Positions 687 through 18,424 are shown, counted from the first letter of the stretch. The stretch: DNA of 64,000 bases from Candidatus Altiarchaeales archaeon (GCA_014727915.1 WJMO01000006.1:1-64000), one strand, 5' to 3'. Made by a program: numbers and translations. Notes: generated by a model not told the origin, from the letters alone.

Positions 687-760
687 TGGGCTGGCCCGGA
701 TTCGAACCGGGGATCTTCGCCTCGTAAAGGCGACGTCATAACCGACTAGACTACCAGCCC
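687..760 (-). tRNA. tRNA-Val(TAC)
   Basis: Reverse complement GGGCTGGTAGTCTAGTCGGTTATGACGTCGCCTTTACGAGGCGAAGATCCCCGGTTCGAATCCGGGCCAGCCCA folds as a cloverleaf. Anticodon arm TCGCC-TT-TAC-GA-GGCGA, T-loop GGTTCGAATCC, no intron. Confidence 0.96.
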
Positions 761-1493: not shown

Positions 1494-1976
1494 ATGAAAG
1501 GTAAGAAAAACACAGGTAAACAACCTTCAGCCGGTGATGGGGGAGCCGTAGGAGAGACAGAGGATTATAAGGCGCTTTTGCAGAGGGTTCAGGCCGACTT
1601 TGAGAACTATAGGAAGCGGGTTGACCGTGACCGGGAGGACAGCAGGAGATACGCCAACCAGAAGATAGTGGAGGAGTTCCTGGAGGTCAAGGACAACCTG
1701 GAGAGGGCGCTTGACAACAATGGTGAGTCCGGGTCTGTCGTGGAGGGTGTGAAGCTCACGTTGAAGCAGTTGGACGGGCTCCTGAAGAAGCACGGGGTGG
1801 AGGAAATGAACCCCAGCGGGTGCGCGTTCGACCCCAGGTTCCATGAGGCAGTCCTCGTGGAGGAGGGGGACGTGGATGAGGAGTGCGTTGGCGAGGTGCT
1901 GCAGAAGGGTTATGTGTTGCACGAGCGGGTTGTGAGGCCTGCTAAGGTTAAAATTTTCAAACCAAGGGAGGAGTGA
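1494..1976 (+). CDS. grpE: Nucleotide exchange factor GrpE
   Basis: LQRVQADFENYRKR, FDPRFHEAV and QKGYVLHERVVRPAKV motifs; directly upstream of dnaK. Confidence 0.97.
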   Translation: MKGKKNTGKQPSAGDGGAVGETEDYKALLQRVQADFENYRKRVDRDREDSRRYANQKIVEEFLEVKDNLERALDNNGESGSVVEGVKLTLKQLDGLLKKHGVEEMNPSGCAFDPRFHEAVLVEEGDVDEECVGEVLQKGYVLHERVVRPAKVKIFKPREE

Positions 1977-1982
1977 TGAAAA

Positions 1983-3926
1983 ATGGCGAAGATATTGGGT
2001 ATTGATTTGGGAACTACGAACTCATGCATGGCTGTTATGGAAGCGGGTAAGCCGGAGGTCATCTCAAACGCAGAAGGCAACAGGACCACACCATCCATTG
2101 TGGCCTTCACGAAAGAGGATGACCGGCTGGTCGGCCAGGTTGCCAAGAGGCAGGCCATAACGAACCCGGAGAACACGGTGTTCAGCGTGAAGCGTTTCAT
2201 AGGTCGGAAGTTCAAGGACGTTGAGATGGGGGAGATCAAGAAGAGCCTGCCATTCACCATAACCGAGGCCTCCAATGGAGACATACGTATCAAGGTGAAG
2301 GGGAAGGAGTATGCCGCACCCGAGATCTCGGCCATGGTCTTGCAGAAGCTGAAGGCCGACGCGGAGGCCTACCTGGGAGAGACCGTCTCGCAGGCTGTGA
2401 TCACCGTGCCCGCATACTTCAACGACAGCCAACGCCAGGCCACCAAGGACGCGGGTAAGATAGCGGGTTTGGATGTTTTGAGGATAATAAACGAGCCCAC
2501 CGCCGCAGCTCTGGCCTATGGGCTGGACAAGAAGACAGAGGAGAAGATCGCCGTCTACGACCTGGGCGGGGGAACATTCGACATAAGTATATTGGAGGTT
2601 GGCGACGGCGTGTTCGAGGTGAAGTCCACCAACGGCAACACGCACCTCGGAGGGGACGACTTCGACATGAAGGTCATCGACTGGCTAGCAGACGAGTTCA
2701 AGAAGGAGAACGGAGTGGACCTGCGCGATGACAAGATGACCCTGCAGCGTTTGAAGGACGCGGCGGAGAAGGCTAAGATCGAGCTGTCATCGACGACATC
2801 GACGGAGGTCAACCTCCCTTTCATAACCCAGGGTTCGTCGGGTCCGTTGCATTTGAACGTCACACTCTCAAGGTCCAAGTTGGAGCAGCTGACGGGGGAC
2901 CTGGTGGAGAGCACTCTGGAGCCGTGCAGGAAGGCGTTGAAGGACGCGGAGCTTTCGGCTTCGGACATCGACGAGGTCATACTCGTCGGGGGTCAGACCA
3001 GGATGCCAGCGGTCCAGGAGGCGGTGAAGAAGCTGTTCGGCAGGGACCCGCATAAGGGTGTCAACCCCGACGAGGTCGTGGCCGTCGGAGCCGCCATACA
3101 GGCCGGCGTGCTGGGAGGCGAAGTCAAGGACGTGCTGTTGTTGGATGTCACCCCCCTGTCACTGGGCATCGAGACCCTGGGCGGCGTGTTCACACGGTTG
3201 ATAGAGCGCAACACCACCATCCCAACTGAGAAGAAGCAGGTGTTCTCGACGGCGGCGGACAACCAGCCCAGTGTCGAAATCAACGTCCTGCAGGGGGACC
3301 GTGAGATGGCGGCGGACAACAAGAGCCTAGGCAAGTTCACACTGTCAGGCATACCCCCCGCTCCGCGGGGGATACCGCAGATCGAGGTGACCTTCAAGAT
3401 AGATGCGAACGGGATATTGAACGTATCCGCCAAGGACCTCGCGACCGGCAAGCAGCAGGCCATAACCATACAGGCCAAGAGCGGCCTCACAGAAGACGAC
3501 ATCAAGCGCATGCAGAAGGAGGCTGACGAGCACGCCGACGAGGACAAGAAGAGGCGGGAGCGGGCTGAGACCGTGAACGAGGCGGACACGCTCGCGTACT
3601 CTGTGGAGAAGGCTTTGAAGGAGATGGGAGACAAGGTCGACGGCAAACAGAAGGAAGACATAGAGAAGAAGGTGAAGGAGTTGAGGGACAGCCTGGGCAA
3701 AGAGGACCTCGACGACATAAAGAAGAAGTCGGAGGCACTGGCGAAGGACAGCCAGGAACTGTTCTCCAAGATGTACCAGGAGGCCGCGCAGGAATACCAG
3801 AAACAGCAGCAGCACGCCGACCAAGACAAGAAATCCGGCAAAGAAGAGGACAAGAAGGAGGGGAAGGACGAGGATAACGTCGTCGACGCCGAATACAAGG
3901 TGGAAGACGACGGCAAGAAGGGATAG
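1983..3926 (+). CDS. dnaK: Chaperone DnaK (Hsp70)
   Basis: [25 protein letters not shown] and NPDEVVA motifs. Confidence 0.99.
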
Positions 3927-3978
3927 AATCCCCTCCTTCTTCCTTTTTTCTGTGCATATTCATTATTGTGGTTGACAT

Positions 3979-5124
3979 ATGGCTTCCAAGCGAGACTACT
4001 ATGAGGTCCTGGGCGTTGACAAGGGCGCGAGCGAAGCCGAGATAAAGAAGGCCTACCGGAAGCTGGCTAAACAGTATCACCCTGATGTGAACAAGGCCCC
4101 CGAGGCTGAGGAGAAGTTCAAGGAAGTGTCCGAAGCATATGAGGTGCTCACCGACCCCACCAAGCGGGCGAACTACGACCAGTACGGGCATGCGGGCGTG
4201 GACTTCGGAAGCGGCGGGTTCCAGTGGCAGGACTTCAGCCGGTTCGGGGACATAGAGGACCTGTTCTCCGGCGGCGACTTCTTCGGCCGGAACATATTCG
4301 ACCTGTTCTTCGGCTCCGGGATGGGCGGGTTCCAACGGAGGAGCGGAGGCGCCACTAGGGGGACCGACATCAGATACGACATAGAACTCAGCCTCCAGGA
4401 GATCTCAGAGGGGACGGAGAGGAAGCTCAACGTTTCCAGGTATGAGAGGTGCAGCGACTGCAACGGCACCGGCAGCAGCAGCGGGAAGCTCAGCACATGC
4501 CCAGTGTGCAAAGGCCGGGGGCAGGAACGCCGCCAGCAGAAGACCCCCTTCGGATACTTTTCGGTCGTCACCAATTGCAGCAGGTGCGGGGGCCGGGGGA
4601 AGGTCGTGGACAAGCCGTGCAACAGATGCCACGGCGACGGCATAGAGAAGGTCCGGAAGGACATAGAGGTAAAGATACCCGCTGGCATAGCCGACGGAAA
4701 CCACCTCCGCATGCGCGGGGAAGGGAACAGCGGAGTCTTCGGCGGGCCCCGGGGGGACCTGTACGTGGTCATACACGAGAAAGACCATCAGTTCTTCACC
4801 CGCCACGGCGACGACCTCCTATGCGAAGTCCCCATAACCTACACCCAAGCCGTCCTAGGCACGGAGATAGAGGTCCCAACCATAAAGGGGAAGGCAACGT
4901 TGAAGATACCAGGGGGGACCCAGAGCCACACCATATTCAGGCTCAAAGGCCAGGGCATACCCCACCTCCGCGGAGGCGGCAAAGGCGACCAACACGTCCG
5001 CGTGACCATCGAAGTGCCCAAGAAACTCAAGAAAAACCAGAGGGAAATCATAGAAAAGCTCGCCGAAATCGAGGACAAGCCAGGCAAAAGCATAATCGAC
5101 AGATTCAAAGACGCCTTCACATGA
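3979..5124 (+). CDS. dnaJ: Chaperone DnaJ
   Basis: J-domain with HPD, G/F-rich region, four CxxCxGxG repeats. Confidence 0.99.
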
Positions 5125-5173
5125 ACGAGACTCCCTTTTATTTAACCTTATGATAAGAGACTAACAACCGGAG

Positions 5174-5773
5174 ATGGTCGCTGTAAAATCCAGAGACGGA
5201 GCATATGTGATAATCATATTACTGCTAATCAGTTTTCTATGGTTGTTGAACAGTATCGGGAGCAGTGGGTGGAAGGGAGGGAGTGTGCAAGAGAATACCC
5301 CCGATGAACCGGAGGAACTGGATGTTGTCAGGGTTACAGTGGATGAAAAAGGGGAGATAATAGATGAAACAGATTTTATAGTGAACAATTCATTATTGGA
5401 AAAATACATCGTGGATACAGGTCTTCCTAAGGGCGTTAGAATCAAACCATATGTATCTGTCCTAGATATTAAGGGTGTTGATTTCTTAAATTATGAGTAT
5501 GTAGTCGACGACTACGTTTATCATTTACTGGTTTATTATGGGGGAGACAGATACAAGGAGGTAATAGAATCCGAGATGGATATAGCAGAAAGAGACGATA
5601 CTGGGAAAATTATTAAATCAAAGAATATGCACATAGAACCTCCTTCTTATTTCTGGTCAAATGATGGGAGGATACTCGTCGTTTATTCGGTTAATGACTC
5701 GGAACATCTAGAAATGCTGAAGGATTTCTTCATCGCCAAATTCCCGCCAACAGAGCCGCTGGATTTACAATAG
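5174..5773 (+). CDS. Hypothetical membrane-anchored protein (paralog of 18408..19037)
   Basis: N-terminal TM helix; shares SLLExY..LPxG, (Y/F)xWxxxxxILxxYS and C-terminal LK....PTE motifs with the ORF at 18408. Confidence 0.7.
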   Translation: MVAVKSRDGAYVIIILLLISFLWLLNSIGSSGWKGGSVQENTPDEPEELDVVRVTVDEKGEIIDETDFIVNNSLLEKYIVDTGLPKGVRIKPYVSVLDIKGVDFLNYEYVVDDYVYHLLVYYGGDRYKEVIESEMDIAERDDTGKIIKSKNMHIEPPSYFWSNDGRILVVYSVNDSEHLEMLKDFFIAKFPPTEPLDLQ

Positions 5774-5794
5774 AGACTGGACTATGCAATAGAT

Positions 5795-6601
5795 TCATAG
5801 GATGTATAGTACGATCATTCCGTAAAAGATCGCAATAATCCTGTAAATTGACCTTAACTTTCTATTTTGGATTTGGTCCCGAGTAATTGGGGGCACATAA
5901 TGCATCAGGGCAAAGCAGAGCAAGTAGGTCACTGCTGTGAAAACCCATGTTATTTTTGAAACAAAAGGCAGGATTGTTGCTATGACAAGGGTCAAGAAAA
6001 ATGATGAGAACACTATCATCTTGAGTAGGTTTAGGGGCAATGAATTTGCAGTCGTCTTGAAACCATTTTTTTCATCGTATTCCAGGTCTTTGAGTTCCTG
6101 AACCAGTTGAAAGGGAACGATTAAAAAGAAAATCAAAGAGGACATTCCAACCACGCCATAGTCAATGGCGCCACCACCAGTGAATATCCCAACAAGGAAT
6201 AGCACAGTAAACAATGAGGAATTAAGGGATAATTCAACTATTGGAACAGTCTTCATGTATAAAGGCGGGCCAGAGTATAGGATGCTGAATATAGTACCAA
6301 TAACTAACACCAGAAACAAACCCTTGGATATGATAAAAGATAAGGACAGAGCAGCCAAGATGGGTAAAAACACGGAAAACAGGGGCAAAAAGGGAATTTT
6401 CTTCCGTATGAATCTCTCAAAGACCAAATTTGAAGAATAACCAAAGGCAAGATATAATGAGGATATTATCGTGCACGAAAATAGCGGCACAATATCGAAT
6501 ATTTTTCCCGTATATGCAAGGCCAAAAAGGCCCAAACCCAGTAGGTGGGTCCAGTCTCCAGCTCTATAGAATCCTAGGATTCTCCTGACATAACCTAACA
6601 T
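5795..6601 (-). CDS. UbiA-family prenyltransferase
   Basis: Multi-TM protein with N-terminal R-x-x-D-W, YSGPPLYMK and second Asp-rich motif QELKDLEYDEKNGFKTTA. Confidence 0.8.
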   Translation of the reverse strand: MLGYVRRILGFYRAGDWTHLLGLGLFGLAYTGKIFDIVPLFSCTIISSLYLAFGYSSNLVFERFIRKKIPFLPLFSVFLPILAALSLSFIISKGLFLVLVIGTIFSILYSGPPLYMKTVPIVELSLNSSLFTVLFLVGIFTGGGAIDYGVVGMSSLIFFLIVPFQLVQELKDLEYDEKNGFKTTANSLPLNLLKMIVFSSFFLTLVIATILPFVSKITWVFTAVTYLLCFALMHYVPPITRDQIQNRKLRSIYRIIAIFYGMIVLYIL

Positions 6602-6680
6602 CTTGCCTTAGAGAGTAGATTCACTAGTTTGCTAAAATAATACTGAATTACACGCCTAAAATTGAAAGACTGTGGAAAGA

Positions 6681-8348
6681 TCAAAGGCATGCTTCTTTTT
6701 CAAGGTATTTTGTCCGCAGCCAATTTGAGATCTCGAAGGGCATGTATTCTCTAAGACGCTTCAGCCAACCGAGTTTATGCTTGTACAGCATATACTCAAT
6801 ATTATCCTTTGTTAGCAGAGCCTGTTTACTGTATTCTATGAAAAGAAGCTCCGACTCCTTTCGGGATAGTGAGTCCCTAGTATAAGTCACCACACCAGGT
6901 ATGTACGACCTGCCCATCGTATAATACTCCCAAATCCCTTTGTCAAATTCACAAGTGCTTAAAACTTCAAAACCATGCTTAATCGGATCATATGCTATGT
7001 CAGCCCGTATACCAACATTAATCAACTCAAGGGCCATATAATCATATAGGTTCCGGACTTCACTGACCTTAGGTATATTCGAGAGTTCATATTCGATTCC
7101 ATATCCAGGATATCCGACCATGTAAGTTGTTGTAACAGCCATACCCTTCTCCCGGCAGTATTTGAGTATCCGCTTAACATAATCTATCGTCTGCCCCTTC
7201 TGAATATCATCGATAACTTCCTGGTCGAGAGACTCAAGGCCGAATTTCGGCCTTCTGAAACCGGAATCATACAGAAGATCGATCAGTTCTTCATCTGTCT
7301 GGGGTAATCGCATGAACCCGCCCCAGTCGATTTTCAGTCCAGAGTCAATTATCAGCTGGCAAAGTTTTTTAAGCGCTGAAGGATCGCCGTTTAATAAGCT
7401 GTCCCCGGATAAAAACCGGTTAATACCGTATTTCTTCGAGTTTAGAGTTAGTTCATCCAGGACTTTTTCAGGTTCCCGAACCCTGAAGGATTTGAAGAAT
7501 CTGCGTTCATCACAGAACTTGCATCCACCAATGCACCCCCGCGAGATATGAAATGATAGATGACTATATCGGCGCATGTCAATACCTTCAAAGTCGGGAT
7601 AAGGCAAGTCATCGAGGTTTATTGGCTCTCTCGGCCCGGGGGAAAAAATTTCACCATCCCTAATACTTGATGTTCCACGTATGTCTGTGGGGAATGTACC
7701 GCCTTCAATTCCATTGACTATCTCAACAATTGAGTCCTCCCCCTCCCCATACACGATATAGTCCACGTTCTCGAACAGGAAATCCCTATATTTTGAGAAA
7801 ACACCCGACTTTTTGAGGGAATCACGTATGGAGTTGTGAAGAAAATTCATCGGGTAAAATACGCCAATCAACAATTCAGTTACAGGACCCCCCAGTATTA
7901 TCTTGGCTTTCTTGTTGTTCTCCTTTATCGCCTGTGCCAGGTATAATATTATCCCAACCGACTGTGACTGAACTCCAAACCCGATCACATCAGAATCAGA
8001 CAATCTGTCAGCAACAATATTGCATTCGCCCAGTATCGTATTAACCTCTTTTGGAAAGCGAATATGAATGCTTTCCCCGCCTCGATCAACAAAACCAAGC
8101 TCCTGGGCAAATAGTTCGCCGGAAATTAACTCAACCCACTCAAGATATTTTGGAATACCCAGGAGGGGTGATTTCTCCCCAAAATAATCCATAGATAGTA
8201 TGCTATCATATATCAGCTGCTCTTGCCTCTCGAATAATTGTATGGTTGAAGTATGACCTGCATGCTTCAAAGATGCATTAATATAACCAAGGCCAAGGGG
8301 GGTAACGCTGTAGGCCATGGGATTCAAACAAGTGAGCCTGACGTCCAT
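6681..8348 (-). CDS. Cobalamin-binding (class B) radical SAM enzyme
   Basis: PLGLGYINASLKHAGH, IILGGP and GEGE B12-domain motifs; SRGCIGGCKFC (CxxxCxxC); FGLES; MVGYPG. Confidence 0.9.
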   Translation of the reverse strand: MDVRLTCLNPMAYSVTPLGLGYINASLKHAGHTSTIQLFERQEQLIYDSILSMDYFGEKSPLLGIPKYLEWVELISGELFAQELGFVDRGGESIHIRFPKEVNTILGECNIVADRLSDSDVIGFGVQSQSVGIILYLAQAIKENNKKAKIILGGPVTELLIGVFYPMNFLHNSIRDSLKKSGVFSKYRDFLFENVDYIVYGEGEDSIVEIVNGIEGGTFPTDIRGTSSIRDGEIFSPGPREPINLDDLPYPDFEGIDMRRYSHLSFHISRGCIGGCKFCDERRFFKSFRVREPEKVLDELTLNSKKYGINRFLSGDSLLNGDPSALKKLCQLIIDSGLKIDWGGFMRLPQTDEELIDLLYDSGFRRPKFGLESLDQEVIDDIQKGQTIDYVKRILKYCREKGMAVTTTYMVGYPGYGIEYELSNIPKVSEVRNLYDYMALELINVGIRADIAYDPIKHGFEVLSTCEFDKGIWEYYTMGRSYIPGVVTYTRDSLSRKESELLFIEYSKQALLTKDNIEYMLYKHKLGWLKRLREYMPFEISNWLRTKYLEKEACL

Positions 8349-8405
8349 CGTTGAATATTGGAGATAACATTAGATATAGGATATTAAGGTAAATGGGATG
8401 TATTT

Positions 8406-9779
8406 ATGATGAATAGTCTACTATCTGGGAAAATGGTTGGGGGAATCAAACAGATTAAAACTGAAAGCCTGTGTCCAACATGCTTGAAAAAGACGGATGC
8501 AGTGGTGATTGAAGAGGATGACGGGATGATTATCAGGATAACGTGTCCAATCCACGGCACAGTAGATAACCCGCACCTATTCCATGACCCTGAGATCTAC
8601 ACGTCTATGAGGGCTCTTATGGCTGCCAGAGACGATAAATGGGTTCCAGATGCCGCGTTCCATGATGTTATAAACAGATGCAACATGAATTGCCCTCAAT
8701 GTTTTATCCCAAAAGTGCAAAGTCCAGAGACTAAACCAACAATAGGCCAGTTAGAGTCCGAAGCCAAAAGCCATAAAGGGTCCATCATCTATTTATTCGG
8801 TGGTGAACCCACCATGCAAGAGGATTTGACCGAGATCATAGAGTTATTCTCAAAGAGGGGGTATGAGACCTCGTTTTTCACAAACGGGTTGAAAATGGCA
8901 GATATTGAATATGCCGAAAAAATTTCAAGAACAAAACCGATGGTTGTATTATCGATTGACACACAGGATCAGAAACAAGGGCTTGAGATATACGGTGCAG
9001 ACGTTCTTCATGAAAAAATATTCGCTTTAGATAACATTATAAGTTTGAATCTCCCGGTGTTCTTGAACGTTGTGCTAAGAAAAGGCTTGAATGAAAACCA
9101 AATCCAGAAGTTCATTGAACTTTTGAAATCCAAGGATGGGAAGGTGAGGGGAATTTCCTTCTCAGGTTATTGGAATCCATCCGGCACAAAACAGGACGAT
9201 ATTGTCCCGGTTAAAGAGGTCATAGAAAAGATAAAACAGGAGATAGACTGCTCACTTGAGGATTTTATTGACTGCACACTATTCGGGCTATACTTCAGCC
9301 AGTTAATCAGGAAAATCACAGATAGTGGAGGAAGGAGGATATCAGCATGCTATCTCAGGCTATATCTTGTACATTACCACAGCAGACTGACACCGTTAAA
9401 CAGGTATATCAACCTGCCCAAGCTCAATGAAAAATTAAGACAGATATATGATAACTTCCAGGGCACGTTTTTCTCAAGGCATAAGGCAGTGATAGCCACT
9501 GCCATTGCATTTTCCATGAGCATAAAAAAGACAAGCTTCATAGGCATCATAATAAAAAATATCCGCTACTGCACCCCAATAGCTTTTAGTAATCGGCACC
9601 CTGCCACAATGTTGATCCCACGCACATCATCAATAGTAATCACAAGATACTTCGACCTGTCAAATGTTGACCTGGAGTTCATACCATATTGCAGCCTGGG
9701 GGCAATAGAGGAGGGAGGGGTTATGCCTTTTTGTCTGAGGGAGATTATGCGCTCTGCAAAAAGAAGTAGGGAGGGGTAA
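8406..9779 (+). CDS. Tes/MJ0619-like radical SAM protein, paralog 1
   Basis: TESLCPTC...CPIHG rubredoxin-like N-terminus, CNMNCPQC, GGEPT, FTNG, C-terminal ...YC...PFC. The start may be a downstream ATG. Confidence 0.85.
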   Translation: MMNSLLSGKMVGGIKQIKTESLCPTCLKKTDAVVIEEDDGMIIRITCPIHGTVDNPHLFHDPEIYTSMRALMAARDDKWVPDAAFHDVINRCNMNCPQCFIPKVQSPETKPTIGQLESEAKSHKGSIIYLFGGEPTMQEDLTEIIELFSKRGYETSFFTNGLKMADIEYAEKISRTKPMVVLSIDTQDQKQGLEIYGADVLHEKIFALDNIISLNLPVFLNVVLRKGLNENQIQKFIELLKSKDGKVRGISFSGYWNPSGTKQDDIVPVKEVIEKIKQEIDCSLEDFIDCTLFGLYFSQLIRKITDSGGRRISACYLRLYLVHYHSRLTPLNRYINLPKLNEKLRQIYDNFQGTFFSRHKAVIATAIAFSMSIKKTSFIGIIIKNIRYCTPIAFSNRHPATMLIPRTSSIVITRYFDLSNVDLEFIPYCSLGAIEEGGVMPFCLREIMRSAKRSREG

Positions 9780-9799
9780 TACCTGCTGGAACCCATGAC

Positions 9800-11137
9800 C
9801 TACCTAGGACTTATATAGTGCCATCTTTTCATGTCTTCAATACAATACCCGGCTTTGCCTTTTTTCACTTCCCGACATATGTTACAGGTACTCGAGAACT
9901 CAAAATCGACATTTGAAGGGTCCATATATCGTTCGACTGTGATTCCAAAAATATTCTTTGTCGTAGATGTTGAAAGCGGATAGTTATGCCTTAAGTCGTT
10001 TATTAGATTTGGGAGAAGCAGTAGACAGAACATCCTGAAGTCCGGGTTAGAGATGAAAGAACGGACGATTAGAGAGTAGGGAAACCATAGAAAAAATGTG
10101 AGAATCATGCTGTGAGAAGACTTCAATTTGGATCTTAGAAAATCCAGATTTTTAATCAATTCATTCAGATCAATCATCCTGGAGATAGGAACCAGCCTAC
10201 CCCCCCTAACCCAAAAATAGCATCTTAGCTCACATCTAGGCGTTCTTATCCCGCCTTTCCCGGTAATTAAGCGCAGTATCTCGAATGTTCTGTTGCTGAA
10301 GAGAGTGCACCCAAGTATATCCTCCAAAGTTATGTCAGTTGACTCGCTAACCAAATCGACTATGCCATTCTGTAGTATTATCTCCTTTTGTTTTCCCTCA
10401 AGATCCCAAAGAACCTTAAAATTAACAAGCCTCAACCAACCGCTATTTTTTGACCCGTATTCAATAGCTTTAGACACCTGATCCTCGTTAACGCCCTTGA
10501 AAACAATCAAGGATAGCATCGTTGGCATGCCTGAAGCAGCTAGGTTCTCCAGGGCCTTCAGCTTGGAATCTAAGACATCACAGCCATAAAGGCTTAGAGA
10601 TTGCCCACGGTCAAAGCTTAGGAACGAAAGGATTACAAGGTTTAAACCCGCTTCTTTAAGTTCACCCGCATAACCTGGTTCGGAAAATCGTATCCCGTTA
10701 GTGAATATCGCCACCCGCTTACCCTGACCCCTCAATCGCGTTATGATTTCCGGGAGGTCTTCCCGTATCGTGGGCTCACCACCACATAAATAAACCAGCG
10801 ATCCTTTGAAATCCTTGCTCAAATCCAAAATCTCATCTACAGTGAGTTCACCACCGTTCCGAAAACTCTTCGGGACAGCGCAAAACGGACAATCCATGTT
10901 GCAATCCATTGTGACTTTAAGCACTTGCCCGTCAGGGAACACATCATCATCCGTTATCATGTTTTCAGACAGAGCAGCGTATAGTCTGGGGTCCTCGAAG
11001 AAATGGAGCGTTTTGAACGACCCATGTTCTGGACACTCCTGAGAGATGTACATTTTACCGCCCTCATTAAACACTTCTGCCGCCACCCGTTCAAAGCAGA
11101 CAGGACACAAGCTCTCGGTTTTCCTTGAATCCATCAC
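9800..11137 (-). CDS. Tes/MJ0619-like radical SAM protein, paralog 2
   Basis: TESLCPVC...CPEHG, CNMDCPFC, GGEPT, PRCELRCY, YMDPSNVD..TC...GYC. Confidence 0.85.
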   Translation of the reverse strand: MMDSRKTESLCPVCFERVAAEVFNEGGKMYISQECPEHGSFKTLHFFEDPRLYAALSENMITDDDVFPDGQVLKVTMDCNMDCPFCAVPKSFRNGGELTVDEILDLSKDFKGSLVYLCGGEPTIREDLPEIITRLRGQGKRVAIFTNGIRFSEPGYAGELKEAGLNLVILSFLSFDRGQSLSLYGCDVLDSKLKALENLAASGMPTMLSLIVFKGVNEDQVSKAIEYGSKNSGWLRLVNFKVLWDLEGKQKEIILQNGIVDLVSESTDITLEDILGCTLFSNRTFEILRLITGKGGIRTPRCELRCYFWVRGGRLVPISRMIDLNELIKNLDFLRSKLKSSHSMILTFFLWFPYSLIVRSFISNPDFRMFCLLLLPNLINDLRHNYPLSTSTTKNIFGITVERYMDPSNVDFEFSSTCNICREVKKGKAGYCIEDMKRWHYISPR

Positions 11138-11217
11138 ATTATAGTATTAGAGAGGATACTAATAGTGTAAAAGAAGAAGAGGACAGGGTTATAAATTAAG
11201 GAGTATATTGGATAAAC

Positions 11218-12567
11218 ATGATCGGGGGAAAGCAGTCTGGGATGAATAAAACGACTAGTCTTTGCCCCGTTTGCCTGGATATTGTGAGTGCTGAGGTCTT
11301 CGAAAAAGACGGTAAGATGACGATGTCCAAGGAATGCAAAATACACGGAGTATTCGAGTCGACACATTTCTGGGAGGACCCCACCATATACAATTTCATG
11401 AAGGAACTGATAGGAGATTCAGAATGTGGAAACCCAGATGGCCTACTGGTAGATGTTAACTGCGAATGCAACATGAACTGCCCATATTGTTGGGTTTCAG
11501 ACCATGCGAAAACTGTGAAACAGACCACGATGGAAGAACTCAAATCGATCATAAGTGTATTCCAAGGATCCTCTATTTACCTGAGCGGCGGAGAACCAAC
11601 CTGTAGAGCAGACCTTCCGGAAATGGTGAAAACAATCAGAGATAACGGTAAGGAACCTGTAATATTCACCAATGGGCTCAAGTTCTCCAACGTGGACTAC
11701 GCATTGTCCATCAAGGAGGCTGGAGCAGGCATGATAATCTTCAACTTCAACAGTTTTGACCGGCGTCAATGTATCAAACTATACGGGGATGACATTTATG
11801 ACATGAAATTCAAAGGATTGAATAACGTCCTCGACATGGGCATACCAGTTTACCTGTATGTGATCCTGAAAAAGGGAGTTAATGAGGACCAGATCAACAG
11901 CGTGCTTGACTTTGCCACTGAACGGAGCCAATACTTGCGGGTTATAGATTTTCAGACCATCTGGGATATCAAGAATGGAGCTGGTGGGGAAGTGCTCACC
12001 CAAACCGGGATTTTAGACCTCTTGAAATCTGAGAGGGGCATTCTATTAGAGGATTTCCTGCAGTCCACTGCCTTCAGCCACTATTTTTTTGAAATATACA
12101 GGAAGGTCTTGGGGAGGGGTGGAAGAAGGTCGCCCAGGTGTGAGCTAAGATGCTATCTTGTGGCTGCAAACAAGTCATTAACGCCCATAACAAAGGTACT
12201 AGACATGGAAAAGCTCAACTACAAGTTGAAACTGTTGAACAGTAGATTAGACAGGTCCGGGCTGCCAAAGATGATTACTTTCTTATTAGGCTTCCCCTAT
12301 GTTTTCCTCATAGGAGAGTTCATAATGAAAAATGAGTTCAGACGCATTGTCATATCAAATGTGCGGAATACCATTACCTCCCTGTTTCAGAAGAAAAGGT
12401 TCCCTGCCTATTCGGCAACTGACATAGTAAGCATCATGCTGGGAAGATTCCATGATAGATTCAACGTAGACCTTGACTTCACAAAAACCTGTACCTTCCA
12501 TGCGGTTTGTAGAGATGGCAAACACGAGTCATTTTGCACGAGAGAGATTATGAGGTCTGGGAAATAA
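11218..12567 (+). CDS. Tes/MJ0619-like radical SAM protein, paralog 3
   Basis: TTSLCPVC...CKIHG, CNMNCPYC, GGEPT, PRCELRCY, FHDRFNVD..TC...SFC. Probable start 11242. Confidence 0.85.
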   Translation: MIGGKQSGMNKTTSLCPVCLDIVSAEVFEKDGKMTMSKECKIHGVFESTHFWEDPTIYNFMKELIGDSECGNPDGLLVDVNCECNMNCPYCWVSDHAKTVKQTTMEELKSIISVFQGSSIYLSGGEPTCRADLPEMVKTIRDNGKEPVIFTNGLKFSNVDYALSIKEAGAGMIIFNFNSFDRRQCIKLYGDDIYDMKFKGLNNVLDMGIPVYLYVILKKGVNEDQINSVLDFATERSQYLRVIDFQTIWDIKNGAGGEVLTQTGILDLLKSERGILLEDFLQSTAFSHYFFEIYRKVLGRGGRRSPRCELRCYLVAANKSLTPITKVLDMEKLNYKLKLLNSRLDRSGLPKMITFLLGFPYVFLIGEFIMKNEFRRIVISNVRNTITSLFQKKRFPAYSATDIVSIMLGRFHDRFNVDLDFTKTCTFHAVCRDGKHESFCTREIMRSGK

Positions 12568-13892
12568 TGGATGAAATCAGGTATAAGACCGAAAGCTTAT
12601 GCCCCATTTGCCTCAGGAAGCTGGAGGCTGAAGTCTACGTGAAAGACGGGACTGTAATCGTGTCAAGAGAATGCGAGGAACATGGGGAATTTGACTGCCT
12701 TCACGCATGGGATGACCCTGAAATATTCAAGAGATTCATGGATATCTCACATAAGCTTGTTGAGAACAGATTCAACGACCTCACAATCGATGTCACAGAC
12801 AGATGCAACATGCGATGTCCATTCTGTTTTAATACGGCAAAGGACGAACCAAGCTTGGATCGCATAATCGAAAAAGCGAAGGCATGGGAGAACGGAAATA
12901 TCGTCCTCTACGGCGGGGAACCAACCATGAGAGACGACCTGCCGGAACTGATAACAGAACTTAAGAGTATGGGATTCGGGGTGATACTGCTCTCAAACGG
13001 ATTGAGGATAGATGAAAAATTAGCAGACAAGCTTGACAACAGCAGATTAGATGGCATAGTTTTACAATTTGATTCCGTGGATGATGACATAAATGAGCGG
13101 ATGAGGGGTATGAGAGTGCTTGAACGAAAGCTGAACGCGATTGAATCCCTAAAAGATGGGAGGATTTGGCTCTCACTTTTTGTGGTGATTATGAAGGACA
13201 CGAATGAAGACCAGATACCAGACATCATAAATCTCGCATGCAAGGAATCCGAGCTGGTTAGGACGGTTTTATTCGCTCCGGTATCGCCAGAGGGAATTGA
13301 GGGGTCTGAGAGAGGACACATCAGGAACAGGGCAATATTCGATAAGATAGGGGAAGCCGGGATTACAAAAGATGATTTCATGGAAAACAGTGAGTTTGAC
13401 ATATCATTAACGAAGTTCCTCTCAAAGATGGGCATCAGAAGGAAGAGCATAACCCTATGTGAAGCATTATGCTATGTCTACCGAGTAAAAGACCATTTCA
13501 TACCATTGAATCATTTGGTGGATTTAAAAGCCATAACGAATGCATTAGATGAGAGCGACTCTGCTATGTCGCTTGCCATAAAATTGTTGAAGTATAATGT
13601 GAAGGCCGATTTACGGCTTCTGCCGGCGATAATGAGAGTATCCGCTAGAATCATGAGAACCCTGGTCTTCAGGGTAAAGTTTGACGACAACATCCCCGGC
13701 ATGGTAGGCATACTAGTCAATCCGACACAGACCAGATATAATGCAGACTACAATTTCATAAGAACATGCAACCTATACTCGGACACCAGAGAGGGGATAA
13801 CCACATACTGTGAGAACAACATATTCTCGACCGGCAAGAAGAACAGTGAAAAACTAGAGAAGAGCCATTTTTACCAGATGAAGACAGGATAA
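12567..13892 (+). CDS. Tes/MJ0619-like radical SAM protein, paralog 4
   Basis: TESLCPIC...CEEHG, IDVTDRCNMRCPFCF, GGEPT, LQFD, LCEALCY, TC...TYC. The ATG overlaps the stop of paralog 3 (TAATG). Confidence 0.85.
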   Translation: MDEIRYKTESLCPICLRKLEAEVYVKDGTVIVSRECEEHGEFDCLHAWDDPEIFKRFMDISHKLVENRFNDLTIDVTDRCNMRCPFCFNTAKDEPSLDRIIEKAKAWENGNIVLYGGEPTMRDDLPELITELKSMGFGVILLSNGLRIDEKLADKLDNSRLDGIVLQFDSVDDDINERMRGMRVLERKLNAIESLKDGRIWLSLFVVIMKDTNEDQIPDIINLACKESELVRTVLFAPVSPEGIEGSERGHIRNRAIFDKIGEAGITKDDFMENSEFDISLTKFLSKMGIRRKSITLCEALCYVYRVKDHFIPLNHLVDLKAITNALDESDSAMSLAIKLLKYNVKADLRLLPAIMRVSARIMRTLVFRVKFDDNIPGMVGILVNPTQTRYNADYNFIRTCNLYSDTREGITTYCENNIFSTGKKNSEKLEKSHFYQMKTG

Positions 13893-13946
13893 AACAGGGA
13901 TAAAATCGTGAGAAACGTAGATTATTAATGAAGTTCATACTTTATT

Positions 13947-16340
13947 ATGTATTTTTTCCGAGACAGCAACGAGTTGAGGATATTCCTTTCCGCATTCGTA
14001 ATATACTTATTCTTCATACATTGGACAGGATGGAACGAGAACTCAAGATTAGATCTGAGCAGGAGTATCGTCGAGGAAGGCAGGTTACATATCGACACCT
14101 ATGCCTCGAATACAGGTGATCGGGCATATTACAATGGCCACTATTACAGCGATAAACCACCGGGACTATCGATAGTCTCTACTCCAGCATATCTCATATT
14201 AGATTCAATCCCCAGACCCAAAAACTATGAGGATGAAGGAAATAGCGGGGAGATAATACTATTGAAAGACGAGACAGGGTCGCCCACTGTTACTTCAGAT
14301 ATTGAACCGGGCAAAAAAACACGCTTGTCGACCATAATCCTTACAATCCTCGCATCATCATTGCCTGCAGCGTCTAACGTTATCTTACTTTTCAGGATAC
14401 TCGGCAAATTTGTCCAAAATGAGAGGATACGGAGTTTAGTTGTTTTAACATATGGCCTGGGAACCCTGGCCTTCCCATACGCACTGATGTTCCTCCCGTA
14501 CAGCATAGGCATATTCATCACATTATTAGCCTTTAGCATGGGGTGGAAAGGGGACGTATCCCCCGTAAAAGGTTGCATCATTGGTCTACTGTTATCAGTG
14601 ACGTTGAGCTTTGATTATATTTTTTTCCCGATAATCATCCCGTCAACCATATACCTATTTTCCAGGATGGGCAAAGCAAAGAAGTGTTATATCCTTGGTT
14701 TGATAACAGGATTATTGCCCATAATAGCATACAATTACCTGATATTCGGACAATTAACCTTCTTTTATAAACACATGGACAGTGATGTTTGGGTATGGGA
14801 TAACCCGGCATTGGAAGAGGGAGCGCTTCCAGTAACCAACCTCTGGATTCCCATCCAAGTATTATTCTACCCGTACAGGGGACTATTCTTCTACTATCCT
14901 GTTTTATTATTTTCGGTTGTGGGGTTGGCCCGTATGAGAAAGAGATTCAGAGGTGAATTCCATATGATAACATCGATGTTCCTCTTGATCTTGGGTGTTT
15001 ATTCAACCATGCTGTATACATGGCATGGGCATATGTTCGGGCCCAGGTATTTCACACCATTAATGCCGTTTCTTATGATACCTACCGCATATGCACTATC
15101 AGAAAAGAATAAAAGAATATTCTTATTGTTGATGTTCACTTCGATATCAGTGAACATACTTGGTTTGCAGAATTTTGAGAATATTATCACAGACGATTTC
15201 AGACAGGTTTCAGCAGAACACGTTTACTCTCTGAAAGGTTTCACATACAATCCTTTATTTGACCACTATCTCCCATTAACCGCGGATAACGGTCCGAGGA
15301 GCAGGCTTTTCGAAAACATCATAGAATATGGCGGACAGTTTGACATCCGTGACATCCCCTATTCTAAGGGCGTGCTCAGCTCCCCCTATCTCCGCAGAGA
15401 GTACATTCCAGTAGCCACAATACCGGGAATGGGTTTCTTCGTTCTGAGGGTGGAATTCCTATGCCTTATACCCTTAACCGTGATATTGGCGCTCATCTGG
15501 AGGAAGGAACTATCCAGACATCTTACGAGAGATAAGTCCCTAATAGTCCTGGCCGTAGTAACCCTGGTATTTCTACTTGCCTTCGTGAGGGTCAAAGACT
15601 CCCTGTTCACCAACGGATGGTATCCGAAGGAAGGGGGTGAAAACGGGTTTTTCAGATTCACCGGGGAAGAAGCAGAGGTGCTTGTCTATAACACAGGAGG
15701 AATGAACAGGATAAACATCATGTTACAAGCTTGGAGCCCGCAGAAGGGCAGAGACCTAGAGATACTCCTGAACAATGAACTGCTTGGAACATACAATATC
15801 TTACCCCAGGGTTCAACGGTTGGAACAACACTTATAAAACTCAAACCGGGAACGAACAAGTTCACTCTTAGATCAACCAGTGGATGCGACAACCCCCCCG
15901 AAGTCATGGCAAACGGAAAGACGATGATATGCTACAGCTTCGGGTTCAGCAACATAAGCTTCAAAAGACAGGACAACCCACTTTTTAGGGAGAACTGGTA
16001 CATGGAGGAAGAGGACGAACATGGGACATTCAAGTTCATGAGCCAGAACGCAACACTAAACATGCGCTCAACAGCTGGAGAAGCTGTTGAGTTGGCTTTC
16101 ACATCCTTCAGCTTTCACAAAAAGAGAGAACTACATGTGTATGTGAACGGCGAGGACATTGGAACAATCGAGAATGATGGTGGGGGATACAGTATGAACA
16201 GGTTCAAAGCACACCTCACAGAGGGTGATAATGAGATCCTCTTCCATTCAGTCCCCGGGTGCGACATACCTTCGGAGGTTGGGGAGTGGGATGACACGCG
16301 GTGCCTGAGCTTCGGGTTCAGGGACATAAAGATTGAGTAA
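13947..16340 (+). CDS. Multi-pass GT-C-type glycosyltransferase-like protein with two C-terminal beta-sandwich repeats
   Basis: NENSRLDL..SIVE.G.L.ID..Y, YSDKPPGLS, RGLFFYYP and GPRY motifs with many TM helices; two ~115-aa C-terminal repeats (W-Y...GCD.P.EV...C.SFGF). Confidence 0.7.
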   Translation: MYFFRDSNELRIFLSAFVIYLFFIHWTGWNENSRLDLSRSIVEEGRLHIDTYASNTGDRAYYNGHYYSDKPPGLSIVSTPAYLILDSIPRPKNYEDEGNSGEIILLKDETGSPTVTSDIEPGKKTRLSTIILTILASSLPAASNVILLFRILGKFVQNERIRSLVVLTYGLGTLAFPYALMFLPYSIGIFITLLAFSMGWKGDVSPVKGCIIGLLLSVTLSFDYIFFPIIIPSTIYLFSRMGKAKKCYILGLITGLLPIIAYNYLIFGQLTFFYKHMDSDVWVWDNPALEEGALPVTNLWIPIQVLFYPYRGLFFYYPVLLFSVVGLARMRKRFRGEFHMITSMFLLILGVYSTMLYTWHGHMFGPRYFTPLMPFLMIPTAYALSEKNKRIFLLLMFTSISVNILGLQNFENIITDDFRQVSAEHVYSLKGFTYNPLFDHYLPLTADNGPRSRLFENIIEYGGQFDIRDIPYSKGVLSSPYLRREYIPVATIPGMGFFVLRVEFLCLIPLTVILALIWRKELSRHLTRDKSLIVLAVVTLVFLLAFVRVKDSLFTNGWYPKEGGENGFFRFTGEEAEVLVYNTGGMNRINIMLQAWSPQKGRDLEILLNNELLGTYNILPQGSTVGTTLIKLKPGTNKFTLRSTSGCDNPPEVMANGKTMICYSFGFSNISFKRQDNPLFRENWYMEEEDEHGTFKFMSQNATLNMRSTAGEAVELAFTSFSFHKKRELHVYVNGEDIGTIENDGGGYSMNRFKAHLTEGDNEILFHSVPGCDIPSEVGEWDDTRCLSFGFRDIKIE

Positions 16341-16342
16341 AA

Positions 16343-16993
16343 CTATTTTTTCTCTGCTTTGATGAAGGTCTGGGCTCCGAAGAGAAGCCATAGGAATCTG
16401 AGTTTCAGGTATATTCTCATTAGGAGGGGGGATTGGGGGAGTGTGCTCTGGGTCGTGTATGGTAGGAAACGGTCTATCGACTCTGTGACCGTGTAACCTT
16501 GGGTTTCCAGCAGGTCTTTGAGGGCTCGGTCGTCCAGTGGTGTTATGTGGTCGAAGAACATCCAGTAGTCCTGTGAGCAGAACCTGATGTTGGGCTGCAG
16601 TATCAGCAGGGAGCCTCCCGGCCTGAGCAGCCTCTTAGCCTCCAGCAGGGCTTTCACTATCTCGTCCCGGGTGAGGTGCTCGAGGACGTTGCTGATGAAC
16701 ACGACATCGACCGAGCCGCCATCCAAATCCCTGATGTCGGAAGCCTTGGAATGCAAGAACTCAACGTCGTCGGACAGGTGCTGCCTGGACCGCTCATCCT
16801 TGTCGACGGCGATCTTCCGGCGGGCGGTTATGTTGTTTATGAACGCGCCAGCCCCTGAGCCGACGTCCAACACCGTGGAATCGGCAGGCACATATCCCTG
16901 GAGGAAGTCCCTGCATAGAACCTTCCAGATCCCATGCTTTGACTGGAAGTTATGGTCGCAGGACAACCCAGCAACATCATCAGCCATCCTCAT
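16343..16993 (-). CDS. Class I SAM-dependent methyltransferase
   Basis: VLDVGSGAG, DVVFISNVLEHL and LRPGG motifs. Start moved to MRMADD because the track start abuts the divergent gene. Confidence 0.88.
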   Translation of the reverse strand: MRMADDVAGLSCDHNFQSKHGIWKVLCRDFLQGYVPADSTVLDVGSGAGAFINNITARRKIAVDKDERSRQHLSDDVEFLHSKASDIRDLDGGSVDVVFISNVLEHLTRDEIVKALLEAKRLLRPGGSLLILQPNIRFCSQDYWMFFDHITPLDDRALKDLLETQGYTVTESIDRFLPYTTQSTLPQSPLLMRIYLKLRFLWLLFGAQTFIKAEKK

Positions 16994-17035
16994 TCTTACT
17001 ATATATTTTCCAGATAAAAAATCCATTAGTAGGAG

Positions 17036-18424
17036 ATGAAAAAAGGGTTTAACACAGTCAGATGGTTGAGTGCGGCAATGGCCGTCCTGTTCATCTTAGA
17101 GGTCCTGTTCTTCCACCAGCTCGTATACTCGGAGGCTGAGCAGCTGGGAGAGGGGGACAGAGAGTTCCTTGATGAGATGTCCATAATGTACGGGTTCCCG
17201 GTTGACGGAATATACCACGTGGACGAACCCTACTGGATGCACGGAACATACGCCTACCAACTCCTGTTCAAGGAGAAGAGCCTGCTACACCGGGACTGGC
17301 AGCACCCCCACATGCTAGACCAGCCGCAACTGTCAAGGTTGATACTTGGATTGGGGCTGGATCTCAGGGGAGGGGATGTAGGGGAGAGCATAGCAGGACT
17401 AATGAACTGGAAGAGCATCGCATACCATAACTTCTGGGTGAAGAACGGCATCGAAAACAAGGAGAGGGACTATGAGATAGTGTTGGACAGGGAGTTGGAG
17501 GAATACATGGGATACCTCATGGGACTGTCTGGCGGCGGGAAAATGACATCGTTCACCCGGAGGGACTACCGGATCGCGCGGGAAACCGCCTATTTCTTCG
17601 CGGTACTCTCCGCCCTGACAATCATGGCCATAAGCTACAGAGTATACCCCCACCCGCTGACGTCGATTATCGCAGGCCAGGTTTTCCTAGCCAACGGGGT
17701 CGCCGTGCCCGCATTCGAACGGGTTCTGTCCGAGAGCATATGCACTTTCTTCACCCTAACAACACTGGCCTTGGTTATGAAACTGGGCGAATCCAGGAGT
17801 AAGAGAAAATGGGCTTTCTTGGCTGGGGTCTCGCTGGGCATGGCCTTGAGCACCAAGTTCACGACAGCCTACATGATACCCGTAGCTGCGGTGGCGCTGC
17901 TCCTGGACAGGAAGACCGAGAAGAGAGAGTTGGTGGGAGCCGCCACTATACTGGCCCTATCAGCGACCATATCATTCCTGTTGTTGAACCCTTCATTGTA
18001 CCCTGACCCTGTGGGTAACACGGCCTGGATGGTGAGCCACAGGGCTAAGATGATGGGCATACAATCGGGGGTGCAGCCCGAAGCAATAAGGACGCTGGAT
18101 GAGAGGGTTCGGCTGATAATCGGTAAGGGCGTGCTCATGGACAGCAGCGAATCAATGACCATCCAGGGAATGCACATCATACTGTTCATATGGGGTTTGA
18201 GACACATTTACGCGAAAGCCAGGGTTGAATTTGCGTCGGGGCGCATGGGCAGGCACGCGGTCGCATCCCTGTTCATAGCATCGACCTTCATCGTTGTGGG
18301 AGCCAGCATACACATGGACTGGCAGAGATACTATATCCCGTTCATGCTATGCTCCGTAATAGCGTTCTCAGCGGGGCTTGGGCAGGCGATAAAGGACGTA
18401 TTTGAAGATGGAAAACGAGGATAG
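17036..18424 (+). CDS. PMT/ArnT-like GT-C glycosyltransferase
   Basis: DEPYW acidic motif in the first loop, DQPQL, multiple TM helices, GMALSTKF, RYY near the C-terminus. Confidence 0.75.
   Translation: MKKGFNTVRWLSAAMAVLFILEVLFFHQLVYSEAEQLGEGDREFLDEMSIMYGFPVDGIYHVDEPYWMHGTYAYQLLFKEKSLLHRDWQHPHMLDQPQLSRLILGLGLDLRGGDVGESIAGLMNWKSIAYHNFWVKNGIENKERDYEIVLDRELEEYMGYLMGLSGGGKMTSFTRRDYRIARETAYFFAVLSALTIMAISYRVYPHPLTSIIAGQVFLANGVAVPAFERVLSESICTFFTLTTLALVMKLGESRSKRKWAFLAGVSLGMALSTKFTTAYMIPVAAVALLLDRKTEKRELVGAATILALSATISFLLLNPSLYPDPVGNTAWMVSHRAKMMGIQSGVQPEAIRTLDERVRLIIGKGVLMDSSESMTIQGMHIILFIWGLRHIYAKARVEFASGRMGRHAVASLFIASTFIVVGASIHMDWQRYYIPFMLCSVIAFSAGLGQAIKDVFEDGKRG

Follow-up and report, generated by a model that had tools for sequence, protein, structure and literature searches.

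A 64,000-nucleotide stretch of DNA from a Candidatus Altiarchaeales archaeon (GCA_014727915.1, WJMO01000006.1:1-64000; hereafter the window) carries four adjacent genes, here named R1 to R4, for radical S-adenosylmethionine (SAM) proteins resembling the tetraether synthase Tes, also called GDGT-MAS (GDGT, glycerol dialkyl glycerol tetraether), and it raises the question of what four such enzymes could be doing side by side. Among the enzymes known, Tes alone couples two unactivated sp3 carbons of lipid tails. The original prediction took the four genes for divergent paralogs of Tes that had been multiplied in tandem and had acquired new functions on a lipid-like substrate. The analysis presented here leads to a different placement: R1–R4 join an uncharacterised variant of the Tes fold as new members, and they are encoded in an unusual four-copy island together with lipid- and glycan-related partners.

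Four Tes-like proteins below the Tes threshold

Four intact radical SAM open reading frames (ORFs) of 441–457 amino acids were called where they had been predicted, in the order +, -, +, + (Table 1). The initial call for R4 was 12534-13892; its most likely start is the ATG at 12567, which gives the 441 aa of the database copy P0001, the TTG at 12534 being less likely, and R2 possibly starts one codon downstream (444 aa, as in P0034). Regular expressions recovered all the motifs of the original prediction from each of the four proteins: CxxC-x20-CxxH, located at residues 23, 11, 16 and 23 of R1, R2, R3 and R4, respectively, together with CNMxCPxC, GGEPT, FTNG or LSNG, NE(D/N)Q and N(V/A)D...C...(F/Y)C, as well as CYLRLY, CELRCY, CELRCY and CEALCY in that order. 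The pattern CPxxCGxC was found by the same search in none of the four, and the corresponding segment is deleted in the alignment, so that the predicted absence of the auxiliary-cluster motif CPxDCGLC holds for all of them. Pairwise BLASTP gave identities of 26–40% with E-values from 4e-42 to 3e-118; R2 and R3 share 40%, R1 shares 33% with either of them, and R4, the most distant of the four, shares 26–30% with R1–R3. As judged from these alignments, their homology is far beyond chance. A profile hidden Markov model (HMM) built from R1–R4 was run against all stop-to-stop frames of 120 aa or more in the window and picked out these four alone; the window is therefore concluded to be devoid of a canonical tes gene.

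Each protein matches the Pfam families Zn_ribbon_HMPTM (PF23545, 42–61 bits) and Radical_SAM (PF04055, 65–90 bits). With regard to the curated NCBIfam models, the scores on the Tes model NF045702 (Table 1) remain below its cut-off of 450 bits, compared with 599–746 bits for Tes controls from fetched loci, and they are nearly the same as those on the TrsS model NF045646 (126.2–175.5 bits; cut-off 490). Scores on MoaA HMMs were 58–87 bits, the cut-offs being 231–325. By these scores R1–R4 are not Tes equivalogs. TrsS belongs to the same superfamily and has a similar length of ~445 aa; in PMC13188914 it is listed only as a selenoprotein.

The closest solved structure by sequence was GDGT-MAS (7tol, E 3.5e-33), followed by SkfB (E 6e-9). 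AlphaFold2 models of R4 and R2, made from alignments of 22 and 46 rows, reached predicted local distance difference test values (pLDDT) of 91.5 and 92.4 and predicted template-modelling (TM) scores (pTM) of 0.92 and 0.91, respectively. In Foldseek searches both models matched 7tol/7tom best, R4 with E 3e-31 and TMq 0.80 over 484 columns and R2 with E 1.7e-32 and TMq 0.78 over 506 columns, the next match being MoaA with 0.38 for R4 and 0.40–0.41 for R2. The fold predicted for R2 and R4 is the Tes fold over its full length, the C-terminal domain included. Since the best structural match is 7tol, the structural comparison did not lead to a non-Tes family, the outcome named beforehand as telling against a Tes relationship, and the proposed Tes/GDGT-MAS domain layout and fold are borne out by both the sequence and the Foldseek ranking. 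With MoaA, PqqE and SkfB the four proteins share the radical SAM core (GGEPT, NG and a partial TIM barrel), and MoaA is the second-best fold match, but that match covers the core only (TM 0.38–0.41, ~220 columns) and no SPASM domain was found in any of the four at E ≤ 0.01 in Pfam. Gms, which had been suggested as a comparator, is AhbD-like and lies outside the Tes family (Garcia 2024, PMC11214058). Mss was set aside as a relative as well, BLAST having found no Tes homologues in Mss-bearing genomes (Sahonero-Canavesi 2022).

In Tes (MJ0619; 7TOL, 7TOM), the rubredoxin-like site is C9X2C12X20C33X2H36, the ligands for [Fe4S4]N, the N-terminal auxiliary cluster, are C73, C77, C80 and a histidine, and its C-terminal counterpart [Fe4S4]C has a labile Met439, with Tyr459 near the substrate (Lloyd 2022, PMC9433317). 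The residues at these positions were counted in a 235-row alignment containing 96 rows of the N-motif-bearing group comprising Tes and TrsS (AUX1) and 73 rows of the clade to which R1–R4 belong; Tes-like proteins without the N-cluster motif are referred to as short-type. The three cysteines and the histidine of the rubredoxin-like site are retained in R1–R4 and occupy their columns in 93–96 of the 96 AUX1 rows and in 71, 71, 73 and 69 of the 73 rows of the clade. The three cysteines of the radical SAM motif CX3CX2C, also kept in R1–R4, are invariant in both groups (96/96 and 73/73 each), and the three C-terminal cysteines, present in all four proteins, are found in 95–96 AUX1 rows and in 72 rows each of the clade. 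In contrast, the four N-cluster columns are gaps in R1–R4 and in 70–73 of the 73 rows of the clade; they are filled in 96/96 AUX1 rows, a count that is circular because that group was defined by the tandem cysteine motif. Thus R1–R4 have in common with Tes the CX2C-X20-CX2H and CX3CX2C sites, the three C-terminal cysteines and both Pfam domains, and, unlike Tes, they lack the [Fe4S4]N segment, Met439 and Tyr459 and are ~45–60 residues shorter.

At the position of Met439, methionine is present in 92 of the 96 AUX1 rows, whereas glycine (25), asparagine (12), alanine (8) and threonine (6) are the commonest residues in the clade of R1–R4, the four proteins themselves having Thr, Glu, Gly and Asn. 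The Tyr459 column holds tyrosine in 75 of the 96 AUX1 rows, most often Ser, Ala, Thr or Gly in the clade, and Ala, a gap, Ala and Ser in R1–R4. The segments ITRYFD, VERYMD, LGRFHD and VNPTQT of R1–R4 align with the (C)MHFMD segment of Tes. It is therefore correct that both residues are missing from all four copies, as had been noticed in the sequence, but they carry less diagnostic weight than that observation implied: the M439A, Y459F and Y459L variants of Tes are still active in vitro, although both residues are fully conserved in 1000 archaeal Tes homologues (Lloyd 2022, PMC9433317). Moreover, three Methanomassiliicoccales proteins (L037:9953-11560, L059:9953-11575 and L080:747-2297) exceed the Tes cut-off with 599–608 bits and have no cysteine in the [Fe4S4]N segment, while a related protein of locus L067 keeps CPDNCGLC; as read from the sequences, this is an independent loss of the N-cluster inside the true Tes clade. 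As the N-cluster cysteines are lost within true Tes too, and Met439 and Tyr459 are dispensable, these losses are less diagnostic for R1–R4.

An unnamed clade and the ancestry of the four copies

A profile of R1–R4 was compared with 1.84 billion representatives of a 50%-identity library, resulting in 52,928 matches at E ≤ 1e-3, a number that fell to 9,234 at E ≤ 1e-10 and to 772 at E ≤ 1e-30. The tandem N-cluster/radical SAM cysteine motif is missing from 142 of the 150 best matches and from 119 of the 127 among them that are at least 400 aa long. None of 47 sampled short-type proteins reached E ≤ 1e-70 on any NCBIfam model; of nine AUX1-type controls, eight were above the Tes or TrsS cut-off, the ninth (P0110) scoring 384 bits. 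As far as these profile searches indicate, no curated family covers the clade of R1–R4.

The evolutionary relationships were examined in two unrooted trees, from which rows outside 400–640 aa were excluded. In the FastTree tree of 235 rows, a clade of 100 rows takes in all 96 motif-bearing proteins (support 100), and R1–R4 are found in the separate 73-row clade (support 98). The IQ-TREE PMSF (posterior mean site frequency) tree, calculated for 73 rows, has Tes and TrsS on one side of a branch (support 99) and the clade of R1–R4 on another (support 95). The TrsS-type proteins, which differ from R1–R4 in keeping CPxDCGLC and the methionine, group with Tes. The description of the four genes as divergent paralogs of Tes consequently fails in its narrow sense, since they score below the Tes equivalog cut-off and are positioned inside a large older clade outside Tes and TrsS.

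Within that clade, R4 pairs with P0002 from an Altiarchaeota metagenome-assembled genome (MAG) at 56% identity (support 95 in IQ-TREE), R1 pairs with P0036 at 48% identity (support 100 in both trees), and R2 and R3 interleave with P0035, P0181, P0182 and P0183 (support 97 in IQ-TREE). The nearest relatives of R2 are P0035 (43%), P0183 and P0181, all at 43–44% identity, P0182 sharing 41% with it; such closer relatives in other genomes include proteins of Altiarchaeota MAGs at 41–56% identity. The approximately unbiased (AU) test rejected R1–R4 as one clade (ΔlnL, the log-likelihood difference, 438.7; p about 1e-120), for a group that had been named after the tree had been seen. With closer relatives in other genomes and a single clade rejected, the four genes are therefore regarded as old paralogs travelling together, and the idea of a recent tandem expansion has to be given up. 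P0182 and P0002 are both recorded on a 174,163-bp contig of an Altiarchaeota MAG, a hint that two or more of the paralogs may be linked in that genome too.

For R2, most of the look-alike clusters in the ESM Atlas come from bacteria (Omnitrophota, Elusimicrobiota and Bacillota). A scan of GTDB genomes with the alignment of the R4 group and two generic patterns (GGEPT; CNxxCxxCF) gave at least 80 loci with at least 83 Tes-like ORFs, comprising at least 77 of the AUX1 type, at least three Methanomassiliicoccales Tes proteins without N-cluster cysteines and one truncated ORF call (L012). Two short-type genes are present among the GTDB matches listed, both in locus L047, and neither the genome of the window itself nor the relatives sharing 40–56% identity with R1–R4 are among the matches listed. 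The expectation that Tes is usually single-copy agrees with a survey of 322 methanogen genomes, in which a single homologue was counted in 172 genomes, a pair in 22 and no homologue in 128 (Zeng 2022). Tandem pairs occur in the canonical branch too: a Halobacteria MAG (L036:9995-13060) and a Dehalococcoidia MAG (L061:10001-12781) each have two tandem N-motif-bearing Tes-family genes. In the same branch, the bacterial Tes/TrsS-like proteins L019:8666-11395 and P0025, both N-motif-bearing, are fused to a MobA-like nucleotidyltransferase domain, the former having an HD domain as well, a possible sign that the substrate or head group of that branch is nucleotide-activated.

No description of a Tes-like clade lacking the N-cluster, or of a four-gene set of this kind, appears in the available parts of the literature on tetraethers, Tes, TrsS and Altiarchaeota lipids, which includes PMC9433317, Zeng 2022, PMC11214058, Sahonero-Canavesi 2022, 10.1101/2025.10.20.683597, PMC13188914, a 2026 Nat Prod Rep review, a Black Sea preprint and a Geyser Andernach paper; the clade may already be visible in the similarity network of IPR034474 in Supplementary Fig. 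5 of Lloyd 2022 and in the supplementary trees of Zeng 2022. Nor was any characterised pathway found for these genes.

The low-GC island and its partner genes

R1–R4 belong to a group of eight genes (5174-16340, ~11 kb) with GC contents of 0.398–0.444, as opposed to 0.534–0.593 in 11 genes that flank the group or lie further away (grpE-dnaK-dnaJ, a methyltransferase, a PMT-like glycosyltransferase, glycolytic genes, PolD and ThrRS). From its composition this eight-gene island looks foreign to the host, which is an archaeon according to the PolD large subunit (1484 bits) and ThrRS encoded in the window, the best PolD match among the fetched loci being a Methanomassiliicoccales protein at 43%; the nearest relatives of the island are found in Altiarchaeota MAGs. 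At the borders of the island no flanking direct repeats and no integrase were seen, and the nearest tRNA gene is 4.4 kb away; Rfam models matched two tRNAs only over the whole window. The operon immediately upstream is of bacterial type (Table 1).

Table 1. Genes of the low-GC island and features flanking it (window coordinates).
Feature	Coordinates	Strand	Length	Characteristics
tRNA-Val	687-760			
grpE-dnaK-dnaJ operon	1494-5124			bacterial type
First island gene	5174-5773	+	199 aa	N-terminal hydrophobic anchor, acidic domain; GC 0.398 vs 0.593 for dnaJ just upstream
UbiA-family polytopic prenyltransferase-like	5795-6601	-	268 aa	PF01040 40.9 bits vs cut-off 34.2; GC 0.399
Class-B-like radical SAM	6681-8348	-	555 aa	Radical_SAM 71.2 bits; divergent N-terminal domain, possibly cobalamin-binding
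R1	8406-9779	+	457 aa	Zn_ribbon_HMPTM and Radical_SAM (Pfam); Tes HMM 127.8 bits
R2	9800-11137	-	445 aa	Tes HMM 155.1 bits
R3	11218-12567	+	449 aa	Tes HMM 159.7 bits
R4	12567-13892	+	441 aa	from ATG at 12567; Tes HMM 178.5 bits
Last island gene, polytopic membrane protein	13947-16340	+	797 aa	putative GT-C type (ArnT/PMT-like); GC 0.444 vs 0.534 for the next gene
SAM methyltransferase and PMT-family GT-C	16343-18424			GC 0.534 and 0.539; PF02366 34.7 bits for the PMT-family protein

The genes between 6601 and 13947 are separated by intergenic gaps of 20–80 bp. The stop codon TAA of R3 overlaps the ATG of R4 as TAATG (window 12565-12569), an arrangement that suggests translational coupling of the two. 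R1 is divergent from the class-B-like radical SAM gene across a gap of 57 bp (8349-8405) and R2 from R3 across one of 80 bp (11138-11217), and these short divergent gaps could be sites of bidirectional promoters. A terminator scan did not rise above the shuffled expectation, and the promoter scan used a bacterial model.

Among the partners, the UbiA-like protein has weak matches in NCBIfam (e.g. MenA-type, 29 bits) and no relative among solved structures at E ≤ 1. As inspected by eye, with no reference alignment, its first Asp-rich motif appears degenerate (NLVFERF at that position) and the DxxxD motif is kept (DLEYDEKNG). The class-B-like radical SAM protein, whose gene adjoins R1, matches the B12-binding domain PF02310 with 31.6 bits (cut-off 32.1) over residues 118-158 only, and all of its NCBIfam matches are below cut-off: BchE with 106 bits, a RiPP (ribosomally synthesised and post-translationally modified peptide) C-methyltransferase with 97 bits (cut-off 282) and a ladderane-type lipid B12 radical SAM family with 82 bits. 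The protein is rare, with three close homologues found, the best being P0296 of an Altiarchaeota MAG at 53% identity; the matches among solved structures are weak. The protein of the first island gene has a sub-threshold match to DUF4860 as its sole Pfam match. The last island gene product matches the LA_3751/LA_3752 putative glycosyltransferase family of NCBIfam with 43.9 bits against a cut-off of 200, and has no Pfam match at E ≤ 0.01 and no relative among solved structures. A C-terminal module of ~124 aa is duplicated in it (15936-16329), the repeated DNA at 15936 and 16308 being spaced by 372 nt; both copies have the motif GCDxPxEV...C(L/Y)SFGF, and this module may bind carbohydrate. A SAM methyltransferase and a PMT-family GT-C protein are encoded right after the island (Table 1), with host-like GC contents. 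It seems that the island has been inserted beside host glycosylation genes, or that it extends a surface-modification locus.

The position of R1–R4 beside a class-B-like radical SAM gene recalls GrsA/B, Gmm, the GDGT methylases and Ted, class-B radical SAM enzymes that partner a Tes-family enzyme. The action of Tes and of B12-binding radical SAM lipid modifiers on one substrate provides a precedent for such pairing (10.1101/2025.10.20.683597; PMC11214058). The island protein is likened to these enzymes by the pairing, and its own curated matches are far below cut-off. Four linked copies beside such a gene are, on the other hand, a difference from Tes.

A similar association was found in an uncultured bacterium (L047), in which two tandem short-type genes are located amid three B12-binding radical SAM genes, together with genes for two DegT aminotransferases, a SPASM radical SAM protein, GT2 and WbqC. 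Furthermore, the library representative P0138 (950 aa) is a natural fusion of an N-terminal B12-binding radical SAM half with a C-terminal short-type module; its halves are 42% identical to the product of the L047 gene just upstream of the pair and 40% identical to that of the second L047 gene, so that the fusion mirrors the gene order of L047:5068-9286. The B12 half scores 109 bits (cut-off 750) on the model of the RiPP enzyme ApyD. L047 and P0138 both belong to the other short-type clade and therefore represent one line of evidence beside the window.

Candidate substrates and significance of the clade

It is proposed, with about even confidence, that R1–R4 belong to an unnamed branch of the Tes/TrsS superfamily, in which they separated from one another long ago, and that they activate C-H bonds by Tes-style radical chemistry, the substrate being a membrane isoprenoid or lipid-linked. 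By analogy with Tes, each of the four would cleave SAM reductively, and a hydrophobic chain lodged in the helical C-terminal domain would lose a hydrogen at an unactivated sp3 carbon to the 5'-deoxyadenosyl radical. The substrate radical would then be parked on, or oxidised by, the three-cysteine C-terminal cluster, as in Tes, before a second radical step formed a C-C bond (by coupling, cyclisation or cross-linking) or another bond. One membrane-bound isoprenoid or lipid-linked substrate would serve all four, each acting at a position or step of its own; the UbiA-type prenyltransferase would build or attach this substrate, the class-B-like radical SAM protein would modify it further, and its glycosylation or transfer would fall to the GT-C-like protein.

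Three features suggest a hydrophobic substrate, namely the conservation of the helical C-terminal domain, its hydrophobicity, which is a proxy, and the UbiA-like neighbour. The segment between the first two C-terminal cysteines, which from the alignment we take to correspond to the lipid-pocket helices of Tes, has a median Kyte-Doolittle value of +0.10 in the clade of R1–R4 (n=73) compared with -0.18 in AUX1 (n=96), and its best 19-residue window reaches 1.38 compared with 0.78; in this respect also the four proteins differ from Tes. Amphipathic helices of the C-terminal domain line the lipid pocket of Tes (Lloyd 2022, PMC9433317).

Several observations weigh against a lipid-linked substrate and the chemistry proposed. 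The role of the three C-terminal cysteines as ligands of an auxiliary cluster is deduced from their conservation. The UbiA match is modest (40.9 bits), its first Asp-rich motif looks degenerate, and the GT-C assignment is weak (43.9 bits; cut-off 200). For the class-B-like neighbour, the B12-binding match stays just under threshold, its orthologue P0296 has none at E ≤ 0.001, and P0296 is located on a contig of 189,956 bp, whereas the relatives of R4 and of R2/R3 are on the contig of 174,163 bp. Finally, L047, the sole other context among the loci listed, is a cluster of sugar-modification type without a prenyltransferase.

The last point leads to the main rival substrate, a sugar or lipid-linked glycan, to which the L047 context and the GT-C genes of the window both point. 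On that explanation, which appears rather doubtful, R1–R4, working with the B12-type radical SAM protein and the GT-C glycosyltransferases, would modify the sugar or glycan part of a cell-surface glycoconjugate or lipid-linked oligosaccharide and leave the hydrocarbon chain alone. It would account for the company of the short-type pair in L047 (two DegT proteins, GT2, WbqC, a SPASM and three B12 radical SAM proteins) and for the GT-C-like protein at the end of the island, next to a methyltransferase and a further GT-C protein, and the sugar- or nucleotide-acting enzymes BlsE, DesII and viperin are indeed among the fold matches, over the core only. However, Tes alone matches the fold over its full length (TM 0.78–0.80, compared with 0.32–0.41 for the sugar-acting enzymes), the hydrophobicity of the C-terminal segment exceeds that of Tes, L047 lies in the other short-type clade, and the methyltransferase and PMT-like genes, with their host-like GC contents, may lie outside the island.

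That R1–R4 are true tetraether synthase isoenzymes, whose products would be GDGT, macrocyclic archaeol or something closely similar (made, for instance, from archaeols that are extended or otherwise modified), is unlikely in view of their scores, their clade placement and the taxa concerned. The fold and the layout of the metal sites are the same as in Tes, Tes activity requires neither Met439 nor Tyr459, and N-cluster cysteines have been lost within bona fide Tes; products of homologues may also differ, the second Tes homologue of Methanosarcina acetivorans making only traces of macrocyclic archaeol (Zeng 2022). On the other side stand scores of 128–178 bits against the cut-off of 450, nearly equal to those on the TrsS model, and the placement outside the clade of Tes and TrsS, besides the absence of two residues that are fully conserved in 1000 archaeal Tes proteins. 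The Atlas look-alikes of R2 are, moreover, mostly from Omnitrophota, Elusimicrobiota and Bacillota, groups that are not known for isoprenoid tetraethers. Maturation of a RiPP, with R1–R4 installing crosslinks and the class-B enzyme C-methylating, is very improbable because none of the four has a SPASM or other peptide-recognition domain and no plausible precursor was found among ORFs of at least 25 aa at 4900-6700 (overlapping frames only), the gaps between 6601 and 13947 measuring 20–80 bp, and because peptide enzymes match the radical SAM core only (TM 0.34–0.41), even though a RiPP C-methyltransferase is the second-best NCBIfam match of the neighbour (97 bits, cut-off 282), the B12 half of P0138 matches ApyD (109 bits, cut-off 750), and SkfB, PqqE and SuiB are among the distant sequence and fold matches.

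Returning to the isoprenoid or lipid-linked substrate, a more far-reaching version may be considered, which is speculative and rather improbable: a radical assembly line in which four specialised Tes-like enzymes, having two [4Fe-4S] clusters each instead of three, would make several different C-C bonds in one prenyl-ether or polyprenyl lipid. A methyl group, a ring or a double bond would come from the class-B partner, and the result would be a membrane lipid or glycolipid of a kind not yet described, polycyclic or cross-linked at several points. The clade would then have been spread by gene transfer among uncultivated anaerobes (Altiarchaeota-like archaea, Omnitrophota and Elusimicrobiota).

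Tes underlies the GDGT-based climate proxies. Surveys that count Tes homologues at a loose threshold could mistake members of the clade of R1–R4 for tetraether producers. If the clade acts on lipids, it points to undescribed membrane lipids in uncultivated anaerobes and offers a natural minimal Tes machinery, without [Fe4S4]N and without the methionine ligand, for mechanistic study; should the assembly line exist, orphan lipid biomarkers would have a source in this clade. Were glycans the substrate, the chemistry of the Tes fold would reach a new class of substrates. In either case, the four-gene set with its partners represents a compact and directly clonable test case.

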